Source: Candidatus Omnitrophica bacterium UBA6215
GTDB taxonomy: Bacteria; Omnitrophota; Gorgyraeia; Pluralincolimonadales; Pluralincolimonadaceae
NCBI GenBank assembly: GCA_002421665.1
Contig: DISH01000003.1
Coordinates: forward strand, 39,291 to 103,290
Direction of reading: 5' to 3'
DNA length: 64,000 nucleotides
Made by a program: the position numbers and the translations under genes. Below are positions 1,493-60,760 of this stretch, piece by piece. How positions within the stretch are numbered: position 1 is the first letter of the stretch; each line of letters begins with the position of its first letter. Below the pieces are notes generated by a model. That model did not search any database. It saw only the letters and a list, made by a program, of their open reading frames with translations, and was not told where the DNA came from.

Positions 1493-1497
1493 GACAA

Positions 1498-2977: not shown

Positions 2978-2982
2978 CCGCC

Positions 2983-36585: not shown

Positions 36586-36618
36586 CAAAAAGTACGTGAA
36601 AAAAATTTAAGATTTTAC

Positions 36619-36650
36619 TTGACAACATAACAGTTATTATATATACTGTT
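36619..36650 (+). promoter_or_regulatory. Putative sigma70 promoter of marR (TTGACA, 17-nt spacer, TATACT) overlapped by an inverted repeat AACAGT-N10-ACTGTT. The repeat is a candidate MarR operator.
   Basis: Consensus -35 at 36619-36624 and -10 at 36642-36647. A perfect 6-bp inverted repeat lies at 36629-36634 / 36645-36650, inside an AT-rich intergenic region. Confidence 0.4.
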
Positions 36651-36682
36651 AATATATTAACAATAATAATAGGAGAAGACCC

Positions 36683-37138: not shown

Positions 37139-37199
37139 CATTTTTGGAGTTATAAAATATTCGCCGTTAATTTGGCTTATATCAATTTGGTAAAGAAAA

Positions 37200-37946: not shown

Positions 37947-37960
37947 TAAGGAGAACGGTT

Positions 37961-38698: not shown

Positions 38699-41312
38699 TT
38701 TCGATAATTTTTCCATACATGAGCTGATGGAATCCATAAACAAACGGTGGTTCTCTAAAACCGCTTTGCAGATAAAGACGAGAGAAGGCTGGAACAGGCT
38801 TTCCTATGTTCCGCTGGGAGAACGGGCGGTTGATATATCTTCGAGTCTTCTTAAGCTTGGAATGGAAAAGGGAGACCGCGCCGCGGTCCTGTCGGAATCA
38901 AGGCCGGAATGGGGTGCCGCGCTTTTTGGAATAATATCCTGCGGCGGTATCGTTGTACCTATGGATGTCAAACTCAGCGAGAAGGAGATGGCTTTCATCC
39001 TCAAGGACAGCGGGGCCAGGTTCATCTTTGTCTCGGAGAAGTATCTTCCCGTGGTCGACAGTATAAAAGCAGCCCTCCCGGAACTAAGGCATATTTTTGC
39101 CATTGATGATACCGACAGGCAGGACCTTATAAAGACTAAAGAACTCAAGATGAGACCGGGTGAAAAGAAATACCTCCCCCTTACCATGGATGACACCGCC
39201 GTCATAGTTTATACTTCCGGTACTACGGGAGTGGCGAAGGGTGTCGAGATAACTTATAAGAACCTGATATTCCAGGCCCGCGAGCTCAACAGGCTTGTCC
39301 GTTATAACGAGTCCGACAATTTCCTTTCAATGCTTCCGCTTAACCATATGCTTGAGTTGACCGGAGGGTTCCTGTCACCGCTATATGTTGGTGCTACCGT
39401 GACGTATTGCGACAGCCTTAAACCGTCGAATATCATGGCCATGATGGCCGAGACGCGTACGACAGCCATGATAACGGTCCCTCTCATACTTAAAATGTTC
39501 CACGACGGCATAATGAAGAAGGCGCAGTCCCGGCCGTTCGTTAGCAGGAAGGCGTTCTTTACCTGCCTGCATCTGTGCAGGTTCCTGCTCAGGTTCAGGG
39601 TAAAGGCCGGCAGGTTATTCTTCGGCCGAATACACAGGCAATTCGGCGGCCGGTTGAGATGTTTTGTTTCGGGAGGCGCCCCCCTTGATACCACCGTAGA
39701 GATGGATTTTAACGCCATGGGTTTTACCATATTGCAGGGTTACGGCCTTACCGAGACCTCGCCTGTCATCGCAGTGAACACTTTTGAGGAATTGAAGTAC
39801 GGCTCTGTAGGCAAGCCCCTGCCGGGAGTCGAGGTTAAGCTCATAAGGCCTGATGGCACCTCGGGGGACGAAGGCGAGATAGTCACGCGCGGCGATCATG
39901 TCATGAAGGGGTATTTCAGGAACCCCGAGAAAACCGCCGAAGTAATCAAGGACGGATGGCTCTATACCGGGGATATCGGTAAATTTGATAAAGACGGTTT
40001 TCTTTACATAACCGGTCGCATCAGGAACCTTATTGTCCTTGGCGGCGGAAAGAAAGTCTTTCCCGAGGAGATAGAGGAAGTGATGTCGGAGAGCCCTTAT
40101 ATTAAGGAAATATGCGTCCTCGGCAGGAAAGCGCAATCCGGGCTTAAGGCCGGCACCGAGGAAGTATTTGCCGTGATCGTCCCGAACCTAGAGATGTTCA
40201 AGGCGGGCGCAAAAGGCGACGAAGAAGCAGCAAGAAAAAAGATAAGCGAAGAGATCCTGCGGCTTGGCTGCAACCTCGCCGAATACAAGAAGATAGCAGG
40301 TTTTATGCTCTATTTCGATGAGCTGCCTAAGACCTCGACAAGGAAGGTCAAGAGGGCGGAGGTGGGGAAGATGCTGGAAGAGACCGGCGATAACCCTAAT
40401 CCCGTTAGCGCTATCGAGGCCCAATTAGGGAAAAGGATGGATATCTCCGGCAATCTTTCCTCGCCCCTGTCCGATATAGGTATAGATTCCATGGAAAAAG
40501 TCGAGATAGTTTGTGCGTTAGAGAGAGAGTATAATTGCACTATACCGGAGGAAGAATGGCAAAAGGCAATTTCGTTAAGTGACCTTATCCGGCTGGCTTT
40601 TGCAAACAAGGGTTTAAAAGGCAGAAATACCGGTGATGGCAATCCTGCGGCAGAAGCAAGGACAGTACGTATCCGGTCGAGGATTTTTCTGCCGAGCAGG
40701 CTACTTTTTGCATTGATCCTCAAAATATTTTTTAGGACCTACCTTAAGGTCAGGGTTAAGGGAAAGGAAAATTTGCCTGCAAAGGGTCCGTTTATACTAG
40801 CGGCCAACCATTCGAGCCATCTTGACCAGCCTCTTTTATTCAACTTGTTTTCGATGGCAAGAATCAAGGACGTGTATTCTCCCGCGGCGGCGGATTATTT
40901 TTATCGCAATATAATCGTGCGCATGTTTGTTGCTATATCATTGAACGCTTTCCCGTTCGAAAGAGAAGGTAATTTTACGAAGGGCTTGAAGATCTGCAAA
41001 GAATTGATTAATATGGACAAATCGTTAATACTATTTCCCGAAGGAACGAGATCCCTTGACGGTAAAATCGGTAATTTTAGGCCGGGAGTAGGCTTGCTTT
41101 CGATCGAATCCGGCGTTCCAGTTATTCCAGTTTATATTAAAGGCGCCCACCAGGCCCTTAGCAAGGGGCGCTTATTTATTAAGCCGGGAACCGTTGAAAT
41201 GATTATTGGTTCTCCCGTTAGTCCTGAGGGGATAGAAGATAACTATAATGGCTATAGGGTATTTGCCGGGACGCTAAAAACGAAGGTAGAAGAATTAAGC
41301 CGGGAGCATTAA
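38685..41312 (+). CDS. Tri-domain fatty acyl-AMP ligase / acyl carrier protein / lysophospholipid (PlsC-type) acyltransferase fusion. It is ElbD-like but lacks a reductase domain.
   Basis: AMP-binding motif 'YTSGTTGVAKGV'. ACP phosphopantetheine site 'LSDIGIDSMEKVEIV'. LPLAT motifs 'AANHSSHLD' (HX4D) and 'FPEGTRS'. Confidence 0.75.
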   Translation: MPRPDFDNFSIHELMESINKRWFSKTALQIKTREGWNRLSYVPLGERAVDISSSLLKLGMEKGDRAAVLSESRPEWGAALFGIISCGGIVVPMDVKLSEKEMAFILKDSGARFIFVSEKYLPVVDSIKAALPELRHIFAIDDTDRQDLIKTKELKMRPGEKKYLPLTMDDTAVIVYTSGTTGVAKGVEITYKNLIFQARELNRLVRYNESDNFLSMLPLNHMLELTGGFLSPLYVGATVTYCDSLKPSNIMAMMAETRTTAMITVPLILKMFHDGIMKKAQSRPFVSRKAFFTCLHLCRFLLRFRVKAGRLFFGRIHRQFGGRLRCFVSGGAPLDTTVEMDFNAMGFTILQGYGLTETSPVIAVNTFEELKYGSVGKPLPGVEVKLIRPDGTSGDEGEIVTRGDHVMKGYFRNPEKTAEVIKDGWLYTGDIGKFDKDGFLYITGRIRNLIVLGGGKKVFPEEIEEVMSESPYIKEICVLGRKAQSGLKAGTEEVFAVIVPNLEMFKAGAKGDEEAARKKISEEILRLGCNLAEYKKIAGFMLYFDELPKTSTRKVKRAEVGKMLEETGDNPNPVSAIEAQLGKRMDISGNLSSPLSDIGIDSMEKVEIVCALEREYNCTIPEEEWQKAISLSDLIRLAFANKGLKGRNTGDGNPAAEARTVRIRSRIFLPSRLLFALILKIFFRTYLKVRVKGKENLPAKGPFILAANHSSHLDQPLLFNLFSMARIKDVYSPAAADYFYRNIIVRMFVAISLNAFPFEREGNFTKGLKICKELINMDKSLILFPEGTRSLDGKIGNFRPGVGLLSIESGVPVIPVYIKGAHQALSKGRLFIKPGTVEMIIGSPVSPEGIEDNYNGYRVFAGTLKTKVEELSREH

Positions 41313-41328
41313 AAAGAGGAAAAATAAA

Positions 41329-41946
41329 ATGCCGCTTCCTTCAGTTTATGATTTTAAACCGCGCTTTCAAAGATTATTGCATCCGGTCTCGGATTGGCTG
41401 GCAAAAAAGCGCGTAACCGCAAATATGGTTACATATTCCGCCTTATTTGGTTCAATGTTAGTTGGAGCAGGAATAGCGATATTCGGGCCGCGTTCAATCC
41501 GCGTCCTTTTGGTACTGCCTGTTTGGTTATTGATCAGGATGGCTTTGAACGCGATTGACGGGATGATGGCACGCGAATATAAGATGGTCTCGAATTTCGG
41601 GTTTGTATTAAATGAAGCAGGGGACGTATTATCCGATGTCTTTTTGTATCTTCCGCTTGCTTTCTTGGCCAAAGATGCATTATTACCCGTTTATGTTTTT
41701 TGTATCGGAGCAATATTGACTGAATTCTGCGGGATTATTCCGAAGACGCTCGGTTTTGGCAGGCGCTACGACGGGCCGATGGGAAAGAGCGACAGGGCTT
41801 TTTGGATAGGCTTACTTTCTATCGTCGCATCGGTATACCCCATGACAATAATATGGTGGAAATATGTATTTATTGTTATGGCATTGATGGAGATAGTTAC
41901 ATGCATAAAGAGAATAAATAACGGGTTGAAGGAGGAGAGCAGATGA
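41329..41946 (+). CDS. CDP-alcohol phosphatidyltransferase family protein.
   Basis: Signature 'DGMMAREYKMVSNFGFVLNEAGDVLSD' (D-G-x2-A-R-x8-G-x3-D-x3-D). Multi-TM. Confidence 0.7.
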   Translation: MPLPSVYDFKPRFQRLLHPVSDWLAKKRVTANMVTYSALFGSMLVGAGIAIFGPRSIRVLLVLPVWLLIRMALNAIDGMMAREYKMVSNFGFVLNEAGDVLSDVFLYLPLAFLAKDALLPVYVFCIGAILTEFCGIIPKTLGFGRRYDGPMGKSDRAFWIGLLSIVASVYPMTIIWWKYVFIVMALMEIVTCIKRINNGLKEESR

Positions 41947-42893
41947 TCGACTGGATCGCCGGAGTCTCACCCACAGGAAAAGGCATATTACTTGTCTTGG
42001 CTTTTCTTGCGTTAATAAGCTTTTTGGTATGGATCCTTGCCATGTCAAAAAGAGACAGCAATGAACTGGTTGCCAGGACAAGATCGTGGTGGGTTATGGC
42101 GGCGATTTTTATGATAGCAGTTGTTTCCGGGAACAGGCACTTTTCCGTAATGTTCTTCTGCTTTTTAAGTTTGTGGGCTACAAAAGAATATCTTTCGGTT
42201 GTAGATATCCCAATCTGGCACAGACCGGTCTTGATCTGGAGCTATGTTATAATAGTGATGCAGTATTATTGGATCGCTATTGATTGGTATGGCATGTTTC
42301 TGGTATTCATTCCCATATTCGGGTTCCTGTTTATTTCAACAAGGGTAATGTTGACCAACGAGCCGGATTATTTTCTGGGTTCATCGGCAAAGATATTATG
42401 GGGTCTTCTCGCTTTTGGACTTGGGCTTAGTCACCTTGGCTACCTTATTAATATACCCGGTTACCATGGTTTGCGAATTGACGGAAGGTCTTTACTGCTT
42501 TTTCTTGTCGTGACGACGGAATTTAACGATGTTGCCCAATATTTTTGGGGCAAACTTTTCGGAAAGCATAAGATCCTCCCGGTTATCAGTCCGAAAAAGA
42601 CCTGGGAAGGGTTTATCGGCGGGGTCGTTACCGCCATAGCTGTTTGCTTTCTTTTTAAGTTTTTGACCCCCTTTAAAGCAGTTTATGAGATAGTTTTTGT
42701 GTCCTTAGCCATTTCGATCAGCGGGTTTTTTGGGGATGTCGTGATGTCGGCTGTAAAGAGAGATATGAGCGTGAAGGATTTTGGAACCGCAATACCAGGG
42801 CACGGGGGTATTTTAGACCGGCTGGATTCAATATCCTTTACAGCCCCGATATTCTTCCATATTATACGTTATTGGTATTGGCCGTCTTGCTGA
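41943..42893 (+). CDS. CTP-dependent lipid cytidylyltransferase of the CdsA/CarS family (phosphatidate cytidylyltransferase-like).
   Basis: 'SPKKTWEGFIGGV' matches the CdsA signature (SPxKTxEG). Multi-TM. It overlaps the preceding gene by 4 nt. Confidence 0.7.
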   Translation: MIDWIAGVSPTGKGILLVLAFLALISFLVWILAMSKRDSNELVARTRSWWVMAAIFMIAVVSGNRHFSVMFFCFLSLWATKEYLSVVDIPIWHRPVLIWSYVIIVMQYYWIAIDWYGMFLVFIPIFGFLFISTRVMLTNEPDYFLGSSAKILWGLLAFGLGLSHLGYLINIPGYHGLRIDGRSLLLFLVVTTEFNDVAQYFWGKLFGKHKILPVISPKKTWEGFIGGVVTAIAVCFLFKFLTPFKAVYEIVFVSLAISISGFFGDVVMSAVKRDMSVKDFGTAIPGHGGILDRLDSISFTAPIFFHIIRYWYWPSC

Positions 42894-42913
42894 GACGGCC
42901 GCGGAGAAAGAAG

Positions 42914-44395
42914 ATGATTAAAGATGAGTTTTTGTTGTCTAGTGTAGGGGACAGGGAGGCCGCATGCGCGGTCGCGCGGAAGTCGGCGATAAATATCCCG
43001 GCTTATAGGGAGTATCTAAGGAGAAATCAGTTTTCCGGCAAGATATCGCGTTCAAATTTTGAAGAGCTCCCCCTTACGGATAAAGAAAATTACCTTATGA
43101 AAGCCCCGTATTTTTCATTATTGCCGCCGGAGAATTTGGATGATGTACACTTTGTGTTTAAAAGCTCGGGTTCGTCAGGTAAGTCTTTCTATTGGCCTCA
43201 ACTAAAGCAGCAATACAAATTATTTGACCTGCTGTTTGAAGATACCCTTAGCAAGAATTTTTCAATCCGCAAGAAAAGGACCGCGATAATCGTCGGGTTA
43301 TCATTGGGGAGCTGGATCGGCGGCGACCTTATTTCGTGGGCCGCGAAGAACGTTGCGTTGCGTTCGAATTACTCCCTTACTGTCTTCAGTCCCGGGAACC
43401 AGCATGAAGAGATACTCGAGATAATTAACGGAATAAACAGGAAGGTTGACCAGATAATACTTTTTGTATGTCCTTCTACGATTGGACATCTTGCCTTGCT
43501 TGCGGAAGAGAAAAATTTTTCTGGCATATTTAACAAGTTGCGATTTCTGGTTATTGGAGAGCCATTCAGCGAAAATTTTAGATTACGTCTTCGGGCAAAG
43601 TGCAAAGTAAAGCCTCCGGAAGTTGTCCTGACGTCCGTATACGGGTCTGCCGATACGGGGATAATAGGGATCGAATCAAATGCTGTCGCATTCTTCAGGG
43701 AGCTTCTATCGAGATACGGGCAATTGCGCAGGTATTACGGTTTTGAGAATTCTTTGCCTAATTTTTTCAACCTCTCCGTAAAAGAGGCTTATATTGAAAT
43801 GGTAAAAGGAGAGCTGGTTTTTACGGCTTGGCAAGGGTTACCGCTTATGCGGTATAATCTGCACGATAACGGCAGCCTCATCGATTGGAACACCGTAAAA
43901 ACGGCGTTAAAAGACATTAATCTCGACGGAGAGTCCGAGAAATTAAAGAACCATATAATCAAGGATAGATCAAATCCTATTGTTATCGCCGTAGGCGGAC
44001 GAAGCGACGGCACTATATATTTATGCGGTACCAACATTTCAGAATCAATGCTTAGCAATGCCATAAACGACAAATCGTTGCAAAAGACCGTAACGGGGCA
44101 TTTTTATGTAAGCGTCTTGGAACGTAATGGCAGGCAGCAGTTGAAATGGGAAATAGAGCTTAAGCCCGGGATTCGTCCTGATAAAAAGACCGAAAGCGTT
44201 ATCTATGCTAAGCTGATTGAATTGCTGGGAAAGCTCCAGCCGGAGTTTATGGCCGATTACAATAGCATATATTCAAAATGGGACGATAACGAATCTGCGA
44301 GGATATTCCAATTTAAATTTTATCCTTGGCCGCAGTTATCAAGAAGACCTGATTCAGCGAAACACAGGATTATTGCATTGACAGAGGATAAATAA
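42914..44395 (+). CDS. PaaK-like / GH3-like adenylate-forming enzyme (phenylacetate-CoA ligase / F390 synthetase family), divergent.
   Basis: 'PLTDKENYL' and the P-loop-like 'FKSSGSSGKSFYW' are present. Start chosen at 'MIKDEF', after the CdsA-like stop. Confidence 0.6.
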   Translation: MIKDEFLLSSVGDREAACAVARKSAINIPAYREYLRRNQFSGKISRSNFEELPLTDKENYLMKAPYFSLLPPENLDDVHFVFKSSGSSGKSFYWPQLKQQYKLFDLLFEDTLSKNFSIRKKRTAIIVGLSLGSWIGGDLISWAAKNVALRSNYSLTVFSPGNQHEEILEIINGINRKVDQIILFVCPSTIGHLALLAEEKNFSGIFNKLRFLVIGEPFSENFRLRLRAKCKVKPPEVVLTSVYGSADTGIIGIESNAVAFFRELLSRYGQLRRYYGFENSLPNFFNLSVKEAYIEMVKGELVFTAWQGLPLMRYNLHDNGSLIDWNTVKTALKDINLDGESEKLKNHIIKDRSNPIVIAVGGRSDGTIYLCGTNISESMLSNAINDKSLQKTVTGHFYVSVLERNGRQQLKWEIELKPGIRPDKKTESVIYAKLIELLGKLQPEFMADYNSIYSKWDDNESARIFQFKFYPWPQLSRRPDSAKHRIIALTEDK

Positions 44396-44396
44396 T

Positions 44397-44993
44397 ATGA
44401 AAAGCAAAGGAATCGGGATATTTGAAAGGGTTTTTTCGTCGCGAGTTTCCTTAATCATATCGTTTTTATGGGGCTTCGCGGAGGCGACCTTATTTTTTAT
44501 TATTCCCGATGTTTTTTTAGGAGCGGTAGCTTTATTTTCGCCAATGTGTGGAATATTGTGCTGTATTATGAGTATCCTGGGGGCTATGCTTGGCGGAGGC
44601 CTTATGTATCTTTTATCTTGCAGGATCCCTCAAACTATGCTTGCCTTGCTAACAAAAGTTCCGGGAATTACAGATTCTATGATAACGCAGGTGGGTATCA
44701 ATTACAAGATGTATGGCCTTAAGTCCATTTTTTTGGCCCCGTGGGCCGGAGTTCCTTACAAGATTTACGCCGTTCAAGCCGGTATTCATGGTATAGACCG
44801 TACGGCTTTTATTTTGGCCACTATTCCGGCCCGTTTAGAGCGGTTTATTTTGGTTATTGTGGTCATGATGTTTCTGGGTTATCGATTTAGAAGGTCTGTT
44901 TTGCGCAGGCCCGGATATTGGATGACCGCGTACGCTGTTTTCTGGATAGCGTGCTACGTGGCATATGCAATTTATTTAAATGGCAGGACTTAA
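44397..44993 (+). CDS. Hypothetical integral membrane protein (5-6 TM) embedded in the lipid cluster.
   Basis: Hydrophobic helices throughout. It starts 1 nt after the preceding stop. Confidence 0.4.
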   Translation: MKSKGIGIFERVFSSRVSLIISFLWGFAEATLFFIIPDVFLGAVALFSPMCGILCCIMSILGAMLGGGLMYLLSCRIPQTMLALLTKVPGITDSMITQVGINYKMYGLKSIFLAPWAGVPYKIYAVQAGIHGIDRTAFILATIPARLERFILVIVVMMFLGYRFRRSVLRRPGYWMTAYAVFWIACYVAYAIYLNGRT

Positions 44994-45010
44994 TTGAATA
45001 TTGGAAATCA

Positions 45011-46324
45011 ATGCGTTCACTAAACTTTTCTGAATCGGTTATGTTAGGCTTACGCTTTTATCCTGCAATACGCAGCATAAGCCGTATGCCATTTGCTTCC
45101 AGGGATTCCATCGAAGGATATCAGCTGTCCAGGATTAAAAAACTTGTTACATTTGCTTACGATAATGTGCCATTTTACAGGAAGAAATATGATGAAGCGG
45201 GTATCCGTCCCGGAGACATAAGGACATTTCATGATTTTAAACGCTTACCGACGGTGACAAAAAAGGATATTATAGAAAATTATCCGCATAACATACTTGC
45301 TTCCGGTACCGATCTAAACCGTTGCATAATATCCAGGAGTTCAGGTTCTTCCGGAGCCATTGTAAATGTTGTCTATGGAACAGGGGCCCTTATCGAATAC
45401 ATATTGGCAGGTTTTAGGATTTATTCTATGGTGATGGATTACAAGCCTTGGCATAAACAGGTTTATATCTATACTTCTCCGTACCCGGTTAACGGGGTAT
45501 TTGGCGCTTATCGTTTATATTTTATACCGACAGTCAACAAGGTTAATGATACGATAGCTGAGCTAAGGAGGATCAGGCCGGATCTTTTGGTTTGTTATCC
45601 GTCCCACTTGCGTCAATTGAGCCACAGCATTTCTCGCGAAGACCTAAAGTTGATAAAACCTCTTGCTATATCAGTGAATTCTGAAATGTCAACTCAGGGG
45701 GAAAGGGATGAACTCGCCGGTTTTTTTGGGTGCGGGGTTTATGATGAATATTCAACCGAGGAATTGACGAGGGTTGCTTCGCAGTGTAAGGCTAAAAATT
45801 ATCATATATTTGAGGATATTAATTATATTGAAATATTGAATGATCGGGGGGCGGATGCAAAAGATGGGGAAGTCGGAGAGATAGTAGGGACAAATCTGCA
45901 TAATTTTACCATGCCCTTTATAAGATACAAGCAGTCCGATATGGCATCCGTATCTTCTGGGGCCTGTTCATGCGGAAGAAACTTTAAGTTATTAAACGGG
46001 TTAAAGGGCAGAAAAAACGATGAATTTATTCTGCCCGGAGGAAAAACCCTTTCTTCCGGGTTTCTGCTGGATGCTTCTTATAATTTGATCCTTGAATTTG
46101 AGAATGCAATAAAAGATTATTGTATTATTCAAGAATCGAGGAATGATATAGTAATGGAGATTATCGCAGGGGATAGCTATTCGGAAGAAAAAAGGGTGCG
46201 GATGGAAGACGCTCTCAGTAAGATAATAGGCGAAGGAGTCGCCGTTAAGGTTGCAAGGGTAGAAGAGCTTTACAAGACAAAATCAGGCAAGCAAAATCCA
46301 ATAATTTCTAAAGTCTCCAGATAA
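45011..46324 (+). CDS. PaaK-like adenylate-forming enzyme (phenylacetate-CoA ligase / CapK / F390 synthetase family).
   Basis: 'FHDFKRLPTVTKKDIIENYP' and 'SRSSGSSGAIVNV' are PaaK-family N-domain motifs. Start chosen at 'MRSLNF'. Confidence 0.7.
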   Translation: MRSLNFSESVMLGLRFYPAIRSISRMPFASRDSIEGYQLSRIKKLVTFAYDNVPFYRKKYDEAGIRPGDIRTFHDFKRLPTVTKKDIIENYPHNILASGTDLNRCIISRSSGSSGAIVNVVYGTGALIEYILAGFRIYSMVMDYKPWHKQVYIYTSPYPVNGVFGAYRLYFIPTVNKVNDTIAELRRIRPDLLVCYPSHLRQLSHSISREDLKLIKPLAISVNSEMSTQGERDELAGFFGCGVYDEYSTEELTRVASQCKAKNYHIFEDINYIEILNDRGADAKDGEVGEIVGTNLHNFTMPFIRYKQSDMASVSSGACSCGRNFKLLNGLKGRKNDEFILPGGKTLSSGFLLDASYNLILEFENAIKDYCIIQESRNDIVMEIIAGDSYSEEKRVRMEDALSKIIGEGVAVKVARVEELYKTKSGKQNPIISKVSR

Positions 46325-46357: not shown

Positions 46358-49300
46358 ATGAAAACTTGCGGTATCTGCGTCGGGGCATCCAACCTGACGT
46401 CGGTGGAGTTGCACAAGGACAAGGAAGGCCTGCGTGTCGGCAGGGTTATTAGTTTGCCGCACGAGGGAAATATATTCGGCTCGCTGGAACAGGCCGTGCG
46501 CAGGGCGCAGGAGGATGGCTACGGGAGTATCGCCGTGACCGGGCGCAAGGTAGGCGCCTCAATCTCGCTGCCGAGATTATCGGAACCGGAAGCGGTAGAG
46601 GAGGCCCTCAAGTTCCTGAACGCCGGTAACAGGAAAAGATACGATGCGGTAGTGAGCGTCGGCGCGGAACTTTTCATAGCTTATCTGCTGGACAGGGAGG
46701 GCAATATCTCCGGGGTCAGGACGCTTAACAAATGCGCGTCCGGGACCGGGGAATTCTTCATGCAGCAGCTCAGGAGGATGAATATATCCCTGGACGATGT
46801 CGTCAAGCTCGCCTCGTCAGAAAAATCATACAGGCTTTCGAGCAGGTGCTCGGTCTTTTGTAAAAGCGACTGTACCCACGCCCTTAACAAGGGCCAGGAT
46901 ATAAGCGAGATTCTTTCCGGTCTCTGCGAAATGATGTCCAGAAAGGTCATGGAACTTCTGGTCAACCTCCCAAAAGAGAATGTCATGCTCATAGGAGGGG
47001 TTGCCCTTAACCCCCGTGTGGTTAATTTTCTCAGGAAGGACATCCGTTCCGTACATGTCCCTAAAGAAGCCGCTTATTTCGAGGCGCTTGGCGCAGCATT
47101 GTGGGCGATGGAACATAATACCGATACGACGAACACGAAACTGCTGCAGGACAAACGCCATCCGTCGAGATTCTCGAACCTGCCTCCGCTTAAGTCCGCT
47201 CTCCCGCTGGTTGATTTCAAGGGCGCGTGGGAAAAGAAGGAATTTTCCGAAGGAGACGTATGCATAATCGGATTGGATGTGGGGTCAACGACGACGAAAG
47301 CCGTCTTGATGAGGGAGCGCGACGATGCCGTTATCGATTCTATATATCTCAGGACCAACGGCAACCCAGTTGAGGCTTCCAGGAATTGTTACAGGGCCCT
47401 GCAGAAAAATCTTAAGAAGGACGTAAAGATAACAGGCATAGGAGTCACCGGTTCAGGCAGGCATATAGCTGCCCTGCACGCCATGACGGACGGCGTGATA
47501 AATGAGATCATCGCCCACGCGCGCGCCGCGGCGTATTTCGACCCCGAGGTTGATACGATATTCGAGATAGGCGGCCAGGACGCGAAATATACGCATATAG
47601 AGAATATGGTAGCCTGCGATTACGCGATGAACGAGGCTTGTTCGGCCGGTACGGGCTCATTCCTTGAGGAGTCATGCAAAGAGACCCTCGGGGTGGAATT
47701 AAAAGACATTGAACCTCAGGCGATGAAAGGCGAGAACCCGCCCAACTTCAATGACCAGTGCGCCGCTTTTATAAGCAGCGATATCAAGACCGCCTCATAC
47801 GAGGGGCTCAAGAAAGAGGATATCGTCGCCGGGCTCGTATATTCCATCTGCATGAACTACAGTAACCGCGTAAAAGGAAACAGGCTTGTAGGCGACAAAG
47901 TGTTGATGCAAGGCGGGGTCTGCTACAACAAGGCGGTTCCCTTTGCTATGGCTTCTCTCTTGGGGAAAAAGATAGTGGTTCCTCCGGAGCCCGGCCTCAT
48001 GGGGGCCTTCGGCGTAGCGCTTGAGGTCAAGGACAAGATAAAGAACGGCCTGCTCAAAAGAGGCGAATACCGGCTTGCCGATCTTATAGGGAGAGAAGTT
48101 AAATACTGTGACAGCTTCAGGTGTAAGGGCGGCGCCGAGAAATGCGATCGGGGGTGCAGTATCCTGCGCATAGAGATAGAGGGTAAGATATATCTTTTCG
48201 GAGGTTCATGCAACAGGTATTACAATATCAACCATTCGGTAGCGGTAGAGGACGGCTTGCTAAATCTTGTCAAAGTGCGCCAAGAACAGCTTTTTAACGT
48301 GGGAGGGGCGCCGGTACCGCGTCCGGGCGCCAAGAGCGTAGGTATCAGCAAATCGTTCCTGTCGCATACTTTCTTCCCGCTGTACCACGATTTCTTCTCG
48401 GCCCTTGGGATGAAGGTCGTGGTTTCCGATACCGTTACGGATTACGGCATTCAGCACAAAAGGGCGGCTTTTTGTTACCCGGCCGAAATAGCCCACGGAA
48501 TGTTCCACAACCTCATCGAGAAAGAGCTTGATTATATATTCCTGCCCCAGGTGCTTGAGATAAAATCCAAGAGGGCGCCGCAGTCAAGGAAAGAACAGCA
48601 GTCCACGTGCGTCATCCTGCAAAGCGAGCCGTATTACCTGCGCGATACGTTCAAGAAAGCGAATAAAGGAAAGCTACTGATACCGGTGGTTGATTTTTCA
48701 AATGGTATACGGAAGGCTCAGGATACTTTTGTCGAGATGGCCGTAAAAATGAGTTTCAACGGCGGGGACGCGGCAACGGCTTACAAGGCCGCGTGCAGGA
48801 AACAGGAGGATTTTACCTCCAGGATGAAACAATACGGCAGGGGATGTCTCGAAGAACTCAGAAAGGACCCGTCAAGGACAGCGGTAGTCCTCCTGGGCAG
48901 GCCGTATAACAGTTTCGCGGCCGAAGCGAACATGGCGATACCGGACAAGTTTTCTTCCCGCGGGGTTACCATAATACCGTTTGACTGCCTTCCTTATGAA
49001 GGCGAATCCGATGACAGGAACATGTATTGGGCGAGCGGCCAGATGATACTTAAGGCCGCGAGGTTCGTAAAGAAGCACCCGCAGCTATACGCCGTTTTCG
49101 TTACTAATTTCAGTTGCGGCCCGGATTCCTTTATCGTGGGACAGGTAAGGGATATGATGGACGAAAAACCAATGCTTATCCTCGAGATAGACAGCCATAC
49201 CGCGGATGCCGGGGTCAATACCAGGATAGAAGCGTTCCTCGATATTGTGGAAAGGTCGAGGCGGGTGGCAGGCATCCCGCAAAAAGCCGCGACGCATTTC

Positions 49301-50644
49301 ATTCCGGCGCGCTGCATAAGCCACAAGAAGAGGTTATGGATAATCTCCTCCGAAGGGGAACGGCTTAAGATAAACGATAAGAAGGTCAAATTATTGATAC
49401 CTCCTATGGGCAAGATGGGCCCGGAAGCGCTCGCGGCGGTCTTTAAGACCGCGGGGATAAACGCGGTGCCGCTCGAGCCGTCGGACGGTGTATCCCTTAA
49501 GCACGGCAGGTCGAATACGACCTGTAAGGAATGCCTGCCGCTCATACTCAGCACGGGGAGCCTTATGAAGTACCTTGAGCGGGACAAGAGCGGGGACGTC
49601 CTTGTGTATTTCATGCCTTCTACCGGAGGCAATTGCAGGTTCGGACAGTATAGCGTATTCTTCAATAATCTAATCAGGAAGAAGCGCATCAGGAACCTCG
49701 CCGTATATTCAATGGATACCCAGAACAGCTACCTGGGCATGGGGAACGCTTTTAATATACTGGTCCTGAAGACCGCGCTTATATACGACGCGATGTATGA
49801 CATAAAGAACGCCTTGAAAGCGCTGGCGAAGGACCGTCAGGAGGCCCTTGGAATATTCGAGGAAGAATGGCATTCCATACTCGCGTGCATAGCCGGCGGG
49901 GGCAAAGGGCTTTACCGGGTGCTCGGCAAGTCCATGGACAGGCTCAGGAATGTGCCTTTAAAGAGGGCGTTCGCCGAGGCGAATAAGGTAGCCATAATGG
50001 GCGAGATATACGTCAGGCGCGATGATTATTGCTGCAATCCGCTTATCGACAGGCTCGCCCAGAAAGAGATAGTGGCCAAGACCGCGCCTATGCTCGAATG
50101 GTTCTATTATGTCGACTACCTCGTCAAGAACAACCTTGTCGAGGCGGATCTGGGAGTATCGGGCAGGGTCGAGTTCTTCATAAAGACGTTTTTGCAGAGC
50201 AGTTATGAGAGGAAGATAAAGGGCATATTGGAGCGTTCCGGGCTTTATGAGAACGAAGAGATAAACATCAGAAAGATCATGGATACCGGAAAAAAGTTTT
50301 TTGACGAGCAGCTTACCGGCGAGTCGATAGTAGTCGTGGGTTCTGCGATGAACGAGATAGCCGAGCATGTCTCAGGGGTTATAAACGTGGGCCCGTTCGC
50401 GTGCCTACCTACCAGGATAATAGAATCCATACTAAACGGTAATATGAATATGGCTTCCAAGAGGAGGTTGTCCGGGAAGGATCTTGAGCACCTTAAGGGG
50501 ACGGAGGACCTTCCTTTTCTTTCGGTCGAGATTGACGGGGCGCCCTTCCCGCCGCTGATCGAGGCCAAGATAGAGGCCTTTTGCCTGCAGAGCAAGCGCC
50601 TTCATGCCAAAATGTCTTATCTTAATTTACGCCATAAAAAATAA
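46358..50644 (+). CDS. 1428-aa fusion of two tandem BadF/BadG/BcrA/HgdC-type activase ATPase domains with a 2-hydroxyacyl-CoA dehydratase (HgdAB/DUF2229)-like C-terminal region. It is a candidate fused plasmalogen-synthase-like (PlsA/PlsR family) enzyme.
   Basis: Two actin-fold activase signatures ('CGICVGASNLTS' and 'CIIGLDVGSTTTKAVL...IFEIGGQDAKY'). A Cys cluster 'CDSFRCKGGAEKCDRGC' is present. The long C-terminal region has HAD-component-like blocks ('LEIDSHTADAGVNTRIEAF'). Confidence 0.7.
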   Translation: MKTCGICVGASNLTSVELHKDKEGLRVGRVISLPHEGNIFGSLEQAVRRAQEDGYGSIAVTGRKVGASISLPRLSEPEAVEEALKFLNAGNRKRYDAVVSVGAELFIAYLLDREGNISGVRTLNKCASGTGEFFMQQLRRMNISLDDVVKLASSEKSYRLSSRCSVFCKSDCTHALNKGQDISEILSGLCEMMSRKVMELLVNLPKENVMLIGGVALNPRVVNFLRKDIRSVHVPKEAAYFEALGAALWAMEHNTDTTNTKLLQDKRHPSRFSNLPPLKSALPLVDFKGAWEKKEFSEGDVCIIGLDVGSTTTKAVLMRERDDAVIDSIYLRTNGNPVEASRNCYRALQKNLKKDVKITGIGVTGSGRHIAALHAMTDGVINEIIAHARAAAYFDPEVDTIFEIGGQDAKYTHIENMVACDYAMNEACSAGTGSFLEESCKETLGVELKDIEPQAMKGENPPNFNDQCAAFISSDIKTASYEGLKKEDIVAGLVYSICMNYSNRVKGNRLVGDKVLMQGGVCYNKAVPFAMASLLGKKIVVPPEPGLMGAFGVALEVKDKIKNGLLKRGEYRLADLIGREVKYCDSFRCKGGAEKCDRGCSILRIEIEGKIYLFGGSCNRYYNINHSVAVEDGLLNLVKVRQEQLFNVGGAPVPRPGAKSVGISKSFLSHTFFPLYHDFFSALGMKVVVSDTVTDYGIQHKRAAFCYPAEIAHGMFHNLIEKELDYIFLPQVLEIKSKRAPQSRKEQQSTCVILQSEPYYLRDTFKKANKGKLLIPVVDFSNGIRKAQDTFVEMAVKMSFNGGDAATAYKAACRKQEDFTSRMKQYGRGCLEELRKDPSRTAVVLLGRPYNSFAAEANMAIPDKFSSRGVTIIPFDCLPYEGESDDRNMYWASGQMILKAARFVKKHPQLYAVFVTNFSCGPDSFIVGQVRDMMDEKPMLILEIDSHTADAGVNTRIEAFLDIVERSRRVAGIPQKAATHFIPARCISHKKRLWIISSEGERLKINDKKVKLLIPPMGKMGPEALAAVFKTAGINAVPLEPSDGVSLKHGRSNTTCKECLPLILSTGSLMKYLERDKSGDVLVYFMPSTGGNCRFGQYSVFFNNLIRKKRIRNLAVYSMDTQNSYLGMGNAFNILVLKTALIYDAMYDIKNALKALAKDRQEALGIFEEEWHSILACIAGGGKGLYRVLGKSMDRLRNVPLKRAFAEANKVAIMGEIYVRRDDYCCNPLIDRLAQKEIVAKTAPMLEWFYYVDYLVKNNLVEADLGVSGRVEFFIKTFLQSSYERKIKGILERSGLYENEEINIRKIMDTGKKFFDEQLTGESIVVVGSAMNEIAEHVSGVINVGPFACLPTRIIESILNGNMNMASKRRLSGKDLEHLKGTEDLPFLSVEIDGAPFPPLIEAKIEAFCLQSKRLHAKMSYLNLRHKK

Positions 50645-51387
50645 AGTTCTTCAAACCCGCAGTCGTTCATTTTCCGTCCGCGTTTCCTTACGGCACGTTC
50701 GACGTTCCCGAAACGTTTGGCGAATTTCTTAGTAGCGTTATGCAGGGCCCCTTCCGCGTCTATGCCTCCGAAACGGGAGAGTATCGCCACGGCGAAGAGC
50801 AGGTCGCCTATCTCTTCGGCCAGCCGGTGTTTATCCCTTTGTTTTAATTCCGTTTTTACTTCCTCGAGTTCTTCGTGGACCTTGTCCACCACGAAAGTGA
50901 TATCCGGCCAGTCGAACCCCTCATGCGCGGCGCGCTTCGATATCTTTTGGGCCTTTATCAATGCAGGGAGGGTTTTCGGGACGCCGTCGAGTATGCTCTT
51001 GCGGTCCCTGTAATTCTTTTCGGTAATTTTTCTCGATTGCCAGTGTTTATAGGCGTCATCCGGGTTTTTGGCCCTGTGCCTGCCGAAGACATGGGGGTGG
51101 CGGTTGAGCATTTTTGCCGCGGATGCTTTCAGGACGTCGTCTATGTCGAATGCCCCGCGTTCCTTGGCTATCTGCGCCTGGAATATGACCTGGAAAAGGA
51201 AATCCCCGAGTTCATCTTTCAATTTTTCCGTATTTTTGGAATCGATGGCGTCACAGAGTTCATACGCTTCCTCGATTATGTGTTTCTTCAATGATGCGTG
51301 CGTTTGAGCCCTGTCCCACGGGCATCCGTTTTTCGCTCGCAGGCGCGCCATGATCTTTACCAGTTCATAAAAAGGTTTTTTGCTCAT
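50617..51387 (-). CDS. mazG: Nucleoside triphosphate pyrophosphohydrolase MazG.
   Basis: Tandem MazG EExxE motifs ('EEAYELCDAID', 'EELEEVKTEL'). The N-terminus 'LVKIMARLRAKNGCPWDRAQTH' is present. Confidence 0.85.
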   Translation of the reverse strand: MSKKPFYELVKIMARLRAKNGCPWDRAQTHASLKKHIIEEAYELCDAIDSKNTEKLKDELGDFLFQVIFQAQIAKERGAFDIDDVLKASAAKMLNRHPHVFGRHRAKNPDDAYKHWQSRKITEKNYRDRKSILDGVPKTLPALIKAQKISKRAAHEGFDWPDITFVVDKVHEELEEVKTELKQRDKHRLAEEIGDLLFAVAILSRFGGIDAEGALHNATKKFAKRFGNVERAVRKRGRKMNDCGFEELYFLWRKLR

Positions 51388-55189: not shown

Positions 55190-55284
55190 AATTCCGTCGA
55201 TATATGGCATACTTTAATTGACCGAAAGGGGCAGTCCGGCCGGCGGTCGGACTTGACGCTGGGTCCGAAAATCCCAAAGCGGGC

Positions 55285-55385
55285 CCACCCCCATCAGGGC
55301 CGAAAGGGCGTGACGCAAAACCCCGGGCCTAAACCGAGGCCATTCCAGGTGGCACGGCAGGGCGGCGAGGTTACCGAAACCGGAG
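55285..55385 (+). ncRNA. Candidate cyclic-di-GMP-I (GEMM) riboswitch aptamer.
   Basis: GC-rich non-coding leader with GEMM-like blocks: 'CAGGGCC-GAAA-GGGCGUGACGCAAAACC' (P2 with GNRA loop), 'CCGGGCCUAAACC', and '...GGCGGCGAGGUUACCGA'. These match the Vc2-type consensus (GACGCAAAGCC / GGCCUAAACC / GGGGUUACCGA). Confidence 0.55.
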
Positions 55386-55461
55386 AAAAGGTCAAAGGCG
55401 TAGGTTGCCTCCCTTTGTCGGTCGATGCAGGATTTCCGGTTGCAGTAGAAGCAGGAGGTTC

Positions 55462-55500
55462 AAAATGGCAAGCGCCATTGCGCTTGCCATTTTGTTTTCC
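55462..55500 (+). terminator. Intrinsic terminator, the likely riboswitch expression platform, 20 nt upstream of the patatin gene start.
   Basis: Perfect 14-bp hairpin AAAATGGCAAGCGC-catt-GCGCTTGCCATTTT, followed by GTTTTCC. Confidence 0.65.
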
Positions 55501-55519
55501 AGCCTATATAATAAAAGAG

Positions 55520-57574
55520 ATGAGCCCTGCCAATATTAATAATTTAGATAAAGCTGCGGTCATAAAGAAAATACCGCTGTTCGCCGACCTGCCGCAGGCC
55601 GCGCAAAAACTCATTGAGGAGCGCTGCTACCTGGTTGAGTACAGGAGAGACCACCTTCTCTACCGCGAGGGTACCCCCGCGGATTCTTTTTATTGCATGG
55701 TATCGGGCCGGGCAAAGGTGTTTGTCAATACCCCATCGGGAGAGGAGAGGGCCCTTATATATCTGCATAGGGGTGATTATGTCGGGATAGTCTCCCTGCT
55801 TACCAACGAACCCCATTCGGCCTCCGTAAGGATAATGAACGATTCGCTGGTCCTGCGCATTGACAAGAAAAATTTTGATCTATTGCTAAGCGACATTCCG
55901 CAGCTTGCCGTCAGACTCAGCGAATCGCTTTCCAGGCGTCTGAAGAAGAAAGAATCCAAGACTAAGGCGGTCTTCGAATCGACGATAATATCGGTTTACG
56001 GCATGGCTAAGAAAGCCGGCAGGACTATGTATTCTGCGAACCTGGCCATCGCCCTGGCCTACGAAACGCGCAAGAAGGTCATTTTGATAGACATGAGCCC
56101 CTCCGGAGAAGAATGCGCTTCCACGCTTCATATGGACGGGAAACCGCAGTGTATCGTCCTTGGTTCCGGCATCCTCAGCTACGATGATGTAAGGTCCAAA
56201 GTCGTAAAGTATGAGCCGGGAGGGATACACCTATTGAGCCTTTCCTGCGCTTCGTCGGCGGACATAGAGCCGTCCGAAGTGATCTCCCTGCTTAGCTCGA
56301 TAGCGTCCGAATTCAATTACATAGTCGTTGATATGCCGTCGGAGATGGATAAACCCGTTTATGCCGTGCTTATCCAATCCGACCTTATACACGTGGTGAC
56401 GGATTCCGGCGAGCATAACCTGAAGGCGACAGGGAGGATCATCGACGAATTGAAAAAGACGGTCAAGGATCCGGATAAGGTCATAAGGGCCGTAATAAAC
56501 GAATTCGTGATGACCAAGAGTTTCGAAGAGGAGGTAAAGCTGTTGGGCCATAAGGCATATGCGACCTTGCCGGACCTCGGTTTCCTTGCCGGGATGATGG
56601 CGGCAGGCCTGCCTCCGGTGCTTGCAGTGCCCGAATGCCTCTATTCGAGGGCGGTCAGGAGGATCGCCAGGGAGATAGGAAGGATACTCGTCGGCCTTTC
56701 GCTTGGTTCAGGGGCGGCGCTCGGGCTTGTCCATATCGGCGTCATCAAGGTGCTGGAAGAGGAGAAGATCCCGGTAGATTTCGTGGCAGGCAGTTCCATA
56801 GGGGCGGTCATCGGGGCGTTCTGGACTTCAGGGATGGACGCTTTAGAGATAGAAAAGGTCGCTTTGAGTTTCAAGAAAAAGAAGACGCTGTTTTCACTGG
56901 CCGATTTTTCCCTCATGCCGCTGCACGGCTTCCTGAACGGCAACGGCATCAAGCGGTTATTCAGGGAATACCTGGGCAACAAGACCTTCCATGATACGCG
57001 CATACCGTTCAAGATAGTCGCCAACACCCTGCGTTCGCGGGAGAACATCGTAATTGACCAGGGCAGCCTTGTCGACGCCTTGCGCGCGACCTGCTCGATC
57101 CCTGCGCTAATTAAACCTGTAAGGTACGGCGACGATTTCTTTATCGACGGAGGGACGCTGGACCCGGTCCCGATAGATGTCCTGGTGAAGGGCGGCGCAA
57201 GCAAGATAATAGCCGTCAACTGCCTCCCGAGCCAGGAAGAGATGCGCAAGATATTCGCCGAGTTCGAGGATAGGCGTCTCAGGGAAGAGGCCAGGCTCGC
57301 TAAGGGCTCCGTCTTCGCGCGGATAAAATATAATTTCAATAACTGGGCCCGCCGGACCTTTGCACCCAACGTTTTCGACGTCATGATGAACACCTCGCTG
57401 GCCATGCAGTATGTCCTGGCTGAGGCGTCGTCCCGTAACGCGGATTGCGTTATCCATCCGATACTGTCGAACGCGGTCTGGTTCGAGCTCTACAAAGCCG
57501 AAGAGCTCATAAAACGGGGAGAGGAAGAGACGCGGAAGATGCTTCCCCAGATAAAAGCCCTGATAGAAGAATAA
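55520..57574 (+). CDS. Cyclic-nucleotide-binding domain / degenerate MinD-ParA-like domain / patatin-like phospholipase fusion protein.
   Basis: N-terminal CAP-family cNMP-binding domain. The middle domain aligns to the MinD/CpaE P-loop region but has a deviant Walker A ('GMAKKAGRT'). The C-terminal patatin domain has a GxSxG 'GSSIGA' motif and a 'FFIDGG' DGG motif. Confidence 0.7.
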   Translation: MSPANINNLDKAAVIKKIPLFADLPQAAQKLIEERCYLVEYRRDHLLYREGTPADSFYCMVSGRAKVFVNTPSGEERALIYLHRGDYVGIVSLLTNEPHSASVRIMNDSLVLRIDKKNFDLLLSDIPQLAVRLSESLSRRLKKKESKTKAVFESTIISVYGMAKKAGRTMYSANLAIALAYETRKKVILIDMSPSGEECASTLHMDGKPQCIVLGSGILSYDDVRSKVVKYEPGGIHLLSLSCASSADIEPSEVISLLSSIASEFNYIVVDMPSEMDKPVYAVLIQSDLIHVVTDSGEHNLKATGRIIDELKKTVKDPDKVIRAVINEFVMTKSFEEEVKLLGHKAYATLPDLGFLAGMMAAGLPPVLAVPECLYSRAVRRIAREIGRILVGLSLGSGAALGLVHIGVIKVLEEEKIPVDFVAGSSIGAVIGAFWTSGMDALEIEKVALSFKKKKTLFSLADFSLMPLHGFLNGNGIKRLFREYLGNKTFHDTRIPFKIVANTLRSRENIVIDQGSLVDALRATCSIPALIKPVRYGDDFFIDGGTLDPVPIDVLVKGGASKIIAVNCLPSQEEMRKIFAEFEDRRLREEARLAKGSVFARIKYNFNNWARRTFAPNVFDVMMNTSLAMQYVLAEASSRNADCVIHPILSNAVWFELYKAEELIKRGEEETRKMLPQIKALIEE

Positions 57575-57580
57575 GCGTAT

Positions 57581-57610
57581 TTGACAGCCCTCCGGCATGG
57601 GGGCTATAAT
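57581..57610 (+). promoter_or_regulatory. Consensus sigma70 promoter (TTGACA, 18-nt spacer, TATAAT) for the fixC-like gene.
   Basis: Perfect -35 at 57581-57586 and perfect -10 at 57605-57610. The AGGAGA RBS is at 57622. Confidence 0.5.
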
Positions 57611-57633
57611 CAATGTAAACAGGAGACCACATA

Positions 57634-58944
57634 ATGGCAAGCGGTGAGAAATTCGATTGTATAGTCGTAGGAGCGGGCCCTGCCGGGACGACATGCGCTT
57701 ATACCCTCGCGAAAGCGGGATTGAGCGTAGTGCTTCTCGAGCGCGGGGAGAAGCCCGGGTCCAAGAACGTAATGGGAGGGATACTTTATTCCACGATACT
57801 TAATAAGGTGATACCCAACTTTTGGGAAGAGGCGCCCGTCGAGAGGAGGATAGTGCAGAAGAAGTTCTCGGTGCTTTCCGACGACTCCGAGCTCCAGCTT
57901 GCCATGAGGTTCGAGGATTTCAACAAGCCCCCCTATAACAATACTTTTTCGGTCCTGCGCGGGAAATTCGACGCATGGTATGCCTCGAAAGCCGAGGAAG
58001 CCGGGGTCATGATACTCAACGAGGCGGTTGTCGATAAGGTTATAGTCGAGAACGGCAAGGCTGTCGGCGTGAAGACCCGCCTTGAGGACGGGGACCTTTT
58101 CGCGGACACGATAGTGATAGCCGAAGGCGTCACTTCCCTGCTGGCGCAGGGCCTGGGGCTCAGGGAAAAACATATACCCGAGCACATGGTCACCTGCTGC
58201 AAGGAAGTCATCGAACTGCCGAAGGAGACGATAGAGCAAAGGTTCAACCTTGATGGCGATGAGGGCGCTTCGCTGGAGTATTTCGGGGGTTCTGTTAAGG
58301 GCCTCGTAGGATCAGCATTCATATATACTAACAAGGATACCGTATCTATAGGCGTCGGAGTATCCACGAACGATCTAAAGAACAACAAGCTTACCCCGAA
58401 TGACATAATAGAATCTTTCAAGGAGCACCCGTCGATAAAGCGCTATATAAAGGGAGGGAAGCTTCTTGAGTATTCCGCGCACATGATACCGGAATTCGGC
58501 TATGACCACCTCCCTAAATTGACCATGGACGGGCTTATCATAGCCGGCGACGCAGCAGGTTTCGTTAACATGAATCCCCTGTATCATGAAGGGTCTAACC
58601 TCGCGATGGCCTCGGGCCTTGCCGCGGCCGAAACGATAATAGAAGCAAGGAAGAACAATGATTTCTCGGAGAAAGGCCTTGCCGGATACCGCAAGCGCCT
58701 CGAAAGCTCTTTCGTCCTTAAGGACCTGAAGAGATATAAAGGTATCTCTAACTTCGCGTTGAAACATCCCGAATTTTTCAAGGAATACCCGGAACTGATC
58801 ATAGAGCTGGCGCAGGATTTCTTCACCGTTTCAGAGACGCCCAAAGGCCAGTCCAGGATGAACGTCATAAAGAAGGGCCTGAAGAGGGTCAACCTGCTCA
58901 AGCTCGCAATAGGGATGAATCGCGCGCGCAAAGTGATGTTCTAA
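57634..58944 (+). CDS. fixC: FixC-type FAD-dependent oxidoreductase (electron-transfer flavoprotein:quinone oxidoreductase family).
   Basis: 'EKFDCIVVGAGPAGTTCAYTLAKAGLSVVLLERGEKPGSKNVMGGILY' is nearly co-linear with rhizobial FixC. Length 436 aa. Confidence 0.8.
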   Translation: MASGEKFDCIVVGAGPAGTTCAYTLAKAGLSVVLLERGEKPGSKNVMGGILYSTILNKVIPNFWEEAPVERRIVQKKFSVLSDDSELQLAMRFEDFNKPPYNNTFSVLRGKFDAWYASKAEEAGVMILNEAVVDKVIVENGKAVGVKTRLEDGDLFADTIVIAEGVTSLLAQGLGLREKHIPEHMVTCCKEVIELPKETIEQRFNLDGDEGASLEYFGGSVKGLVGSAFIYTNKDTVSIGVGVSTNDLKNNKLTPNDIIESFKEHPSIKRYIKGGKLLEYSAHMIPEFGYDHLPKLTMDGLIIAGDAAGFVNMNPLYHEGSNLAMASGLAAAETIIEARKNNDFSEKGLAGYRKRLESSFVLKDLKRYKGISNFALKHPEFFKEYPELIIELAQDFFTVSETPKGQSRMNVIKKGLKRVNLLKLAIGMNRARKVMF

Positions 58945-58954
58945 GAGAGTCTCG

Positions 58955-60751: not shown

Positions 60752-60760
60752 GGGCAGGAT

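Follow-up and report, generated by a model that had tools for sequence, protein, structure and literature searches.

The 64-kb window analysed here, a 64,000-nucleotide stretch of contig DISH01000003.1 from Candidatus Omnitrophica bacterium UBA6215, encodes a fused protein of 1428 residues, referred to below as the giant protein. It is best explained as an ATP-dependent iron-sulfur (Fe-S) reductase of the PlsA/Ger branch of the BCR/HAD superfamily, which would turn an acyl ester of a glycerophospholipid into an ether bond, and this reading is given a probability of about 0.55. Between the two products known from this branch, an alkyl ether as made by Ger is slightly favoured over a vinyl ether as made by PlsA, because the PlsA clade is the most distant from the giant protein in the family tree and because the taxa of its sister group, clade A' (Deltaproteobacteria, Myxococcota, Acidobacteriota), have reported Ger homologues. 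An earlier note on this DNA had described a protein resembling a fused PlsA-PlsR plasmalogen synthase; it was correct on what type of enzyme this is, on its Fe-S ligands and on its lipid context, and too specific on the product.

The gene starts with ATG and its product has a mass of 158.5 kDa and 35 cysteines; the 1428-residue protein shows no transmembrane-like segment and is predicted to be soluble. Pfam finds two BcrAD_BadFG (PF01869) stretches, DUF2229 (PF09989) at residues 661-877 and one small PF06050 match, and the NCBIfam model TIGR00241 scores 240.6 bits. The open reading frame, Pfam and NCBIfam thus bear out the architecture proposed earlier, two tandem HgdC/BcrA-type activase domains joined to an HgdAB/DUF2229-like C-terminal region. 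The parts of the gene are as follows.

46358-50644, + strand: whole gene, fused activase/reductase (open reading frame, Pfam, NCBIfam)
46358-47137, + strand: Act1, degenerate HgdC-type activase, about residues 1-260 (Pfam profile; alignment to HadI 4eht and HgdC 1hux)
47255-48037, + strand: Act2, canonical HgdC/BcrA-type ATPase, about residues 300-560 (GLDVGSTTTK, EIGGQDAKY, QGGVCYN; ligands C428 and C468)
48107-48211, + strand: linker cysteine cluster, residues 584-618 (C589-x6-C596-x3-C600 and C618 invariant)
48278-49252, + strand: Red1, about residues 641-965, DUF2229 with a short HGD-D-like end (HAD/BCR catalytic-subunit fold; C706, C751 and C920 invariant)
49355-50641, + strand: Red2, about residues 1000-1428, PlsR-equivalent second catalytic domain (C1059, C1093 and C1349 invariant)

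The conservation of cysteines was followed in 179 members of clade A, the group that contains the giant protein, and in five PlsA-clade proteins. All the Fe-S ligand cysteines, whose loss would have spoken against the earlier proposal, are kept in both sets. Thirteen cysteines are invariant in clade A, all of them common to Clostridium PlsA and PlsR. The clade-A invariant cysteines are listed as C126 and C164 in Act1, C428 and C468 in Act2, C589, C596, C600 and C618 in the linker, C706, C751 and C920 in Red1, and C1059, C1093 and C1349 in Red2. The cysteine motif singled out earlier, CDSFRCKGGAEKCDRGC, corresponds to residues 584-600. It was rejected as one conserved unit because its first cysteine, C584, varies, while the linker set C589/C596/C600/C618 stands; in the PlsA clade the linker carries C-x2-C-x3-C...C at the same place.

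In the alignment with HgdC/HadI, the counterparts of C126/C164 and C428/C468 are the cysteines of NDKCAAGTG and SSTCTVFAES. Act2 retains every ATPase motif. In Act1, by contrast with the canonical forms, the phosphate-1 motif reads GICVGAS instead of GIDxGST, with the Asp replaced by Cys, the phosphate-2 motif reads SVGAEL instead of DIGGQD, and the match to the Pfam activase profile begins only at position 92. Across the clade the two Act1 motifs are GIC[LV]GAS, with the Cys in about 97% of the members, and S[LV]GAE[NL]F, the canonical form of the latter being [DE][IL]GG[EQ]D. Act1 retains its cluster ligands, and clade A adds the conserved C7, C168 and C172, of which C168 and C172, within RCSVFCKSDCTHAL, are new and invariant. 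A pair of ATP-hydrolysing activase protomers is therefore not found at the level of sequence motifs, Act1 having lost them and Act2 being canonical. Since both ATPase motifs are lost while the cluster ligands are kept, Act1 looks like a conserved pseudo-ATPase that still supplies half of the bridging cluster.

The loss of these motifs also raises the question whether the giant protein is a catalytically impaired or regulatory paralogue in need of a partner for the missing ATPase function, comparable to Ger2 of Desulfatibacillum alkenivorans, which is inactive alone (PMC11150832). This is very improbable. The degenerate Act1 is kept in 179 clade members from several phyla, with the replacement residues and new cysteines strongly conserved, which indicates purifying selection on a functional protein. 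Act2 is intact, as are all the cluster ligands, and no paralogue of the gene is present within the 64-kb window.

The catalytic half, Red1-Red2, consists of two related domains of the HAD/BCR/DCCP fold with three cysteines each. All six catalytic cysteines are present, and DCCP is among the best structural matches of this half. The sites could hold either two [4Fe-4S] clusters or one double cubane, between which the sequence does not decide. Membership in HGD-D (PF06050), as expected of the catalytic subunits of a CoA-ester dehydratase proper (HgdAB/HadBC/LcdAB) or of the YjiL/YjiM type, was not obtained at the sequence level, and the half is typed as DUF2229. In a sequence search of the PDB only the activase domains found matches (HadI, HgdC, MbdQ and DCCP-R), the catalytic half having none, and the latter is only 10-16% identical to HadBC/BzdNO. 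By sequence the giant protein does not group with the CoA-ester dehydratases; such a grouping is what the earlier note had named as contrary to its proposal.

A reaction sequence for the preferred reductase reading can be outlined from these ligands and folds. A low-potential donor would reduce a [4Fe-4S] cluster placed between Act1 and Act2 and bound by the conserved pairs C126/C164 and C428/C468. ATP hydrolysis would then drive the electron downhill, probably in Act2 only, given the motif loss observed in Act1. From there the electron would pass through a four-cysteine linker cluster to the two three-cysteine sites of Red1 and Red2. By homology, two one-electron steps would reduce the ester carbonyl and a dehydration would give a vinyl ether, the route proposed for PlsA/PlsR; the vinyl ether might be reduced further to a saturated alkyl ether in a Ger-like manner.

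PlsA/PlsR makes plasmalogens (sn-1 vinyl ethers) from diacyl phospholipids and is known from Clostridium perfringens (CPE1194/1195) and, as the fused form, from Enterococcus faecalis (EF1327), Lactococcus cremoris, Bifidobacterium longum and Listeria (PMC12838417, PMC9702350). The cloning primers listed in the supplement of PMC12838417, searched as exact DNA patterns, yielded the C. perfringens-type and E. faecalis references. The primer for C. perfringens matched two Clostridium genomes, and in L002 plsA-plsR span 531-4729, or 4,199 bp, equal to the fragment cloned by Jackson et al.; the E. faecalis primer led to an open reading frame of 1415 residues (4,248 nt), equal to the published gene length. 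A tblastn search of a plasmid collection, in which some entries are mislabelled chromosomes, also gave fused homologues from Listeria monocytogenes, Collinsella, Haliovirga and Acetoanaerobium. In Collinsella aerofaciens (L011 7064-7753) the fused PlsA-clade gene shares its 3' end with an overlapping TetR/AcrR regulator gene, in agreement with the regulator beside pls in E. faecalis (PMC9702350); a MarR gene heads the operon of the window gene instead.

The giant protein is collinear with Clostridium PlsA plus PlsR and with E. faecalis PlsA in the order Act1-Act2-Red1-Red2, and it matches the latter with E = 1e-99 over residues 121-1355. By domain, the identity to the PlsA references is 20-24% for Act1, 36-38% for Act2, 22-24% for Red1 and 16-19% for Red2, which is the most divergent part of the protein. 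E. faecalis PlsA and the Clostridium PlsA/PlsR pair are 47% identical, the five PlsA references from four phyla share 35-54% mutual identity, and the validated PlsAs are 41-55% identical to that of C. perfringens (PMC12838417). On sequence grounds, the giant protein is not a PlsA orthologue.

It is accordingly unlikely that the giant protein is a true plasmalogen synthase, that is, a fused PlsA-PlsR making sn-1 vinyl ethers. The four-domain order and the Fe-S ligand cysteines are those of PlsA/PlsR, the gene sits in a lipid operon, and the chemistry common to both is proposed to pass through or end at a vinyl ether (PMC8788747). Yet the giant protein shares only 23-26% identity with the validated PlsAs, far below their mutual values, the PlsA clade is the most remote in the five-clade tree, and Act1 lacks the ATPase motifs kept by every sampled PlsA-clade protein. 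Moreover, a vinyl or an alkyl product cannot be read from sequence (PMC13274423, PMC11868695). The resemblance noted earlier holds for the collinear architecture and the common cysteines, and falls short in identity and in the position of the PlsA clade.

The Red1-Red2 half was searched exhaustively against 1.84 billion cluster representatives, of which 632 matched at E <= 1e-30. A neighbour-joining tree of the fusions of about 1400 residues, built on 1359 alignment columns with the PlsA clade as the source of reference enzymes, resolves five groups, named A, A', B, C and PlsA. Clade A, with members at least about 42% identical to the giant protein, contains proteins from Omnitrophota, Chitinispirillia/Fibrobacterota and some metagenome-assembled genomes (MAGs) of Deltaproteobacteria, as well as some archaeal members, with a Woesearchaeota protein and one from an archaeal-type contig. 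The closest named relatives are Candidatus Omnitrophota MAGs at 85% identity, and an identical protein occurs on 14 contigs in the homology table; the locus look-up covered 18 contigs. For the cultured clade-A organism Chitinispirillum alkaliphilum, published lipid data cover phospholipid fatty acids and head groups only.

The sister group A', 36-38% identical, comprises MAGs of Deltaproteobacteria, Myxococcota and Acidobacteriota and the anaerobic eukaryote Anaeramoeba; A and A' together are monophyletic (47/47 sequences). Clade B, 30% identical, contains Brocadiia, Planctomycetota, Aerophobetes, Bacteroidales, Zixibacteria and Fibrobacterota, and clade C is 28% identical. The PlsA clade, at 23%, is separate and monophyletic. 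A full-length A' member of 1491 residues is annotated in Anaeramoeba flamelloides (KAJ3428733; P0259 / P0351) on an 11.8-Mb scaffold and may reflect lateral transfer into the eukaryote. Beside a Deltaproteobacteria A' member (L016 14332-15708), a 458-residue FAD_binding_4 protein is encoded directly 3' of the giant gene; this Pfam family also includes alkyl-dihydroxyacetone phosphate synthase.

Ger, described as a "modified PlsA", yields saturated 1-alkyl and dialkyl ethers in Thermotoga maritima (Tmari_0479/AGL49404) and D. alkenivorans (SHJ90043) (PMC13159169, PMC11150832). Contrary to the earlier assumption, plasmalogen synthases are hence not the only lipid-acting members of the superfamily (PMC13159169), and a vinyl-ether product cannot be taken for granted. 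At present the alkyl product of Ger and the vinyl product of PlsA are not distinguishable by sequence (PMC13274423, PMC11868695). The published Ger descriptor comprises two PF01869, one PF09989 and a small PF06050/PF09989 match; the giant protein shows two PF01869, one PF09989 and one small PF06050, a pattern also seen in A', B and C. Two simple discriminators were rejected. The rule that one Pfam activase hit denotes PlsA and two denote Ger fails with the Clostridium, Listeria and Haliovirga PlsA-clade proteins, which also score two, and the small H/D/D/H Pfam architecture fails with the short HGD-D match, which occurs in A, A', B and C and varies among close relatives.

GeR homologues were listed for Omnitrophica and Fibrobacteres in a BLAST survey without an identity threshold (supplement of 10.1101/2022.04.21.487849). 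A Black Sea screen at >=30% identity to a Ger query found nine phyla, including Aerophobota, Planctomycetota, Bacteroidota, Myxococcota and Desulfobacterota (PMC11868695); Omnitrophota are absent from that list despite 267 MAGs of the phylum (PMC11868695). Their absence at >=30% identity and presence without a threshold suggests that the Ger query is less than 30% identical to clade A and that Ger lies outside it, a placement with which the surveys agree but which they do not prove. Neither Thermotoga nor Desulfatibacillum appeared among 30 cluster look-ups of fused-family sequences. Homology searches led from a Deltaproteobacteria clade-A member to Chitinispirillia neighbours and from the A' member P0225 to MAGs only, with no named Ger anchor among the results.

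The genomic context points to a lipid substrate. The genes preceding the giant gene are the following.

36619-36647, + strand: promoter-like site TTGACA-17-TATACT ahead of the MarR gene (consensus scan only)
36683-37138, + strand: MarR-family regulator
37200-37946, + strand: alpha/beta hydrolase, possibly a lysophospholipase or thioesterase, kept in the operon of relatives
37961-38698, + strand: hexapeptide-repeat acyl/acetyltransferase, kept in the operon of relatives
38685-41312, + strand: Aas-like fusion of acyl-AMP ligase, carrier domain and PlsC-type acyltransferase
41329-41946, + strand: CDP-alcohol phosphatidyltransferase (best matches to (archaetidyl)inositol-phosphate synthase models, below cut-offs)
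41943-42893, + strand: CdsA, CDP-diacylglycerol synthase
42914-46324, + strand: variable segment, with a PaaK-like adenylating enzyme (42914-44395), a small membrane protein (44397-44993) and a PaaK/CapK-like adenylating enzyme (45011-46324)

After the promoter-like site no strong terminator-like site was found until past the giant gene, and an operon of about 14 kb starting at 36619-36647 and ending with the giant gene is possible. The transferase at 41329-41946 scores 74.8 bits with NF040950 (archaetidylinositol-phosphate synthase; cut-off 180), better than with bacterial PgsA, which hints at an inositol-phosphate head group. Because the giant gene ends an operon for fatty-acid activation, lysolipid acylation, CDP-diacylglycerol formation and a probable inositol-phosphate-type head group, the enzyme most likely remodels the lipid made by its own operon.

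The end position in an acyl-lipid assembly cluster, noted earlier, is real, and this lipid-operon context is kept in three Omnitrophota-type lineages. The core from the hydrolase to CdsA also precedes the giant gene in relatives of 62-63% identity, where the downstream genes differ and the 42914-46324 segment is swapped for diacylglycerol-kinase-like, methyltransferase and flavodoxin genes. In one of these relatives the flavodoxin gene lies directly upstream of the giant gene. In a 52%-identical relative from another lineage a DUF362/ferredoxin gene precedes the giant gene and plsY-gpsA lie no more than 4 kb away, and two more members of about 50% identity have DUF362/ferredoxin genes adjacent or nearby. 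Overall, a flavodoxin or DUF362/4Fe-4S-ferredoxin gene is adjacent or nearby in 4/11 sampled contexts (L014 5750-6190; L015 8769-9908; L017 6719-7804; L019 14010-16784), and these neighbours, which recur in unrelated contexts, are candidate dedicated electron donors.

The same neighbourhood bears on another explanation, by which the giant protein, as an ATP-dependent Fe-S reductase or dehydratase from this superfamily, would have a substrate other than a glycerolipid ester, such as an acyl-carrier or acyl-adenylate formed by the PaaK-like enzymes next to it or a small molecule as in DCCP, with the lipid genes nearby by coincidence or in a lineage-specific manner. This is regarded as doubtful. 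It would suit the large sequence distance from all characterised lipid enzymes, the DCCP and DCCP-R matches, the two PaaK-type adenylating enzymes directly upstream, the solitary position of most non-Omnitrophota members and the depth of the family, whose at least five clades among the 632 representatives may differ in substrate. The conserved core of the Omnitrophota operon, however, is Aas-like/CDP-alcohol transferase/CdsA while the PaaK-like genes are variable, plsY-gpsA lie near the giant gene in a second lineage, and all members of known function with the fused double-activase and DUF2229 architecture act on glycerolipid esters.

Several points weigh against the preferred reading of an ether-forming glycerophospholipid reductase. 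The giant protein is only 23-26% identical to E. faecalis PlsA, the C. perfringens-type PlsA/PlsR and Listeria PlsA, none of the five clades lies further from clade A than the PlsA clade, and clade A has no identified characterised member. Ger2 of D. alkenivorans forms no ether lipid when alone (PMC11150832), so that membership of the family is no guarantee of activity. The operon structure is drawn from gene spacing and a consensus promoter scan only, and lipid or redox neighbours are lacking in 4/7 non-Omnitrophota clade-A contexts. The G+C content is 0.42-0.46 over 36000-46000, the lipid operon, compared with about 0.51 in the remainder of the window, the giant gene included; possible causes are the codon content of membrane proteins and a more recent acquisition of the operon, and the lower upstream value leaves open that the juxtaposition of giant gene and operon is recent.

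A more far-reaching proposal, put forward tentatively, is that clade A forms a functionally distinct branch in which Act1 is a pseudo-ATPase with a new cysteine site (C7, C168, C172) in its vacant nucleotide pocket. Such an enzyme might spend one ATP per electron instead of two, or hold an extra metal centre, and as the last step of the Omnitrophota operon it might yield an ether-linked inositol-phosphate-type phospholipid from scavenged fatty acids. If this were true, the operon lipid would join bacterial chains to features usually considered archaeal.

Other parts of the window were noted in passing. A MazG-type nucleotide pyrophosphohydrolase gene (50617-51387, - strand) is convergent with the giant gene and overlaps its 3' end by 28 nt. 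Further downstream, at 55253-61600, lies a second group of lipid-related genes, which suggests lipid scavenging. Its first product is a cyclic nucleotide-binding/ParA-like/patatin phospholipase fusion (55253-57574); a flavoprotein resembling FixC/ETF-QO follows (57634-58944), then a FadD-like acyl ligase (58955-60751) and, last, a hydrolase of the monoacylglycerol-lipase type (60761-61600). Two unusual domain combinations are a PilZ domain fused to a GH2-type glycosidase barrel (2983-5088) and a 377-residue protein with a retropepsin-like aspartyl protease domain (24635-25768).

Ether lipids of anaerobic bacteria bear on the "lipid divide" between bacteria and archaea, on the palaeoclimate proxies based on branched glycerol dialkyl glycerol tetraethers and on the plasmalogens of gut microbes. 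Field surveys at present count BLAST matches to PlsA and to Ger alike as a single enzyme type, while the fused family splits here into at least five deep clades, with experimental anchors placed in the tree only for the PlsA clade, the furthest from the giant protein. Should clade A turn out to make ether lipids, candidate environmental sources of such lipids would include Omnitrophota, Chitinispirillia and, among the archaea, some DPANN and others. The conserved operon offers a testable pathway from substrate to product, and Act1 with its new conserved cysteines serves as a natural experiment on the number of ATP-hydrolysing sites required by an HgdC-type electron injector.

Among known systems, PlsA/PlsR shares with the giant protein the order Act1-Act2-linker cysteine cluster-Red1(DUF2229)-Red2, a similar size (1395-1475 residues compared with 1428), the matching cysteines (2+2 activase ligands, four in the linker and 3+3 in the catalytic half), and an anaerobic host and lipid context. 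It differs in its canonical Act1, which is degenerate here, in the linker spacing (C-x2-C-x3-C compared with C-x6-C-x3-C) and in lacking the additional invariant cysteines C7, C168, C172, C344, C498 and C522. Ger, by its published description, is likewise one fused chain (about 159 kDa) in which two activase domains and DUF2229 are followed by a short HGD-D-like match. The 2-hydroxyacyl-CoA dehydratases and class I benzoyl-CoA reductases (HadBC+HadI, HgdAB+HgdC, BzdNOPQ and MbdONQP) are in contrast multi-subunit enzymes with CoA thioester substrates and two competent ATPase protomers, and where HadBC/BzdNO have HGD-D, the far-diverged catalytic half of the giant protein has DUF2229. DCCP, which works with DCCP-R (6eno, 7yyl, 7yzm), is a separate protein of 420 residues with one [8Fe-9S] cluster.

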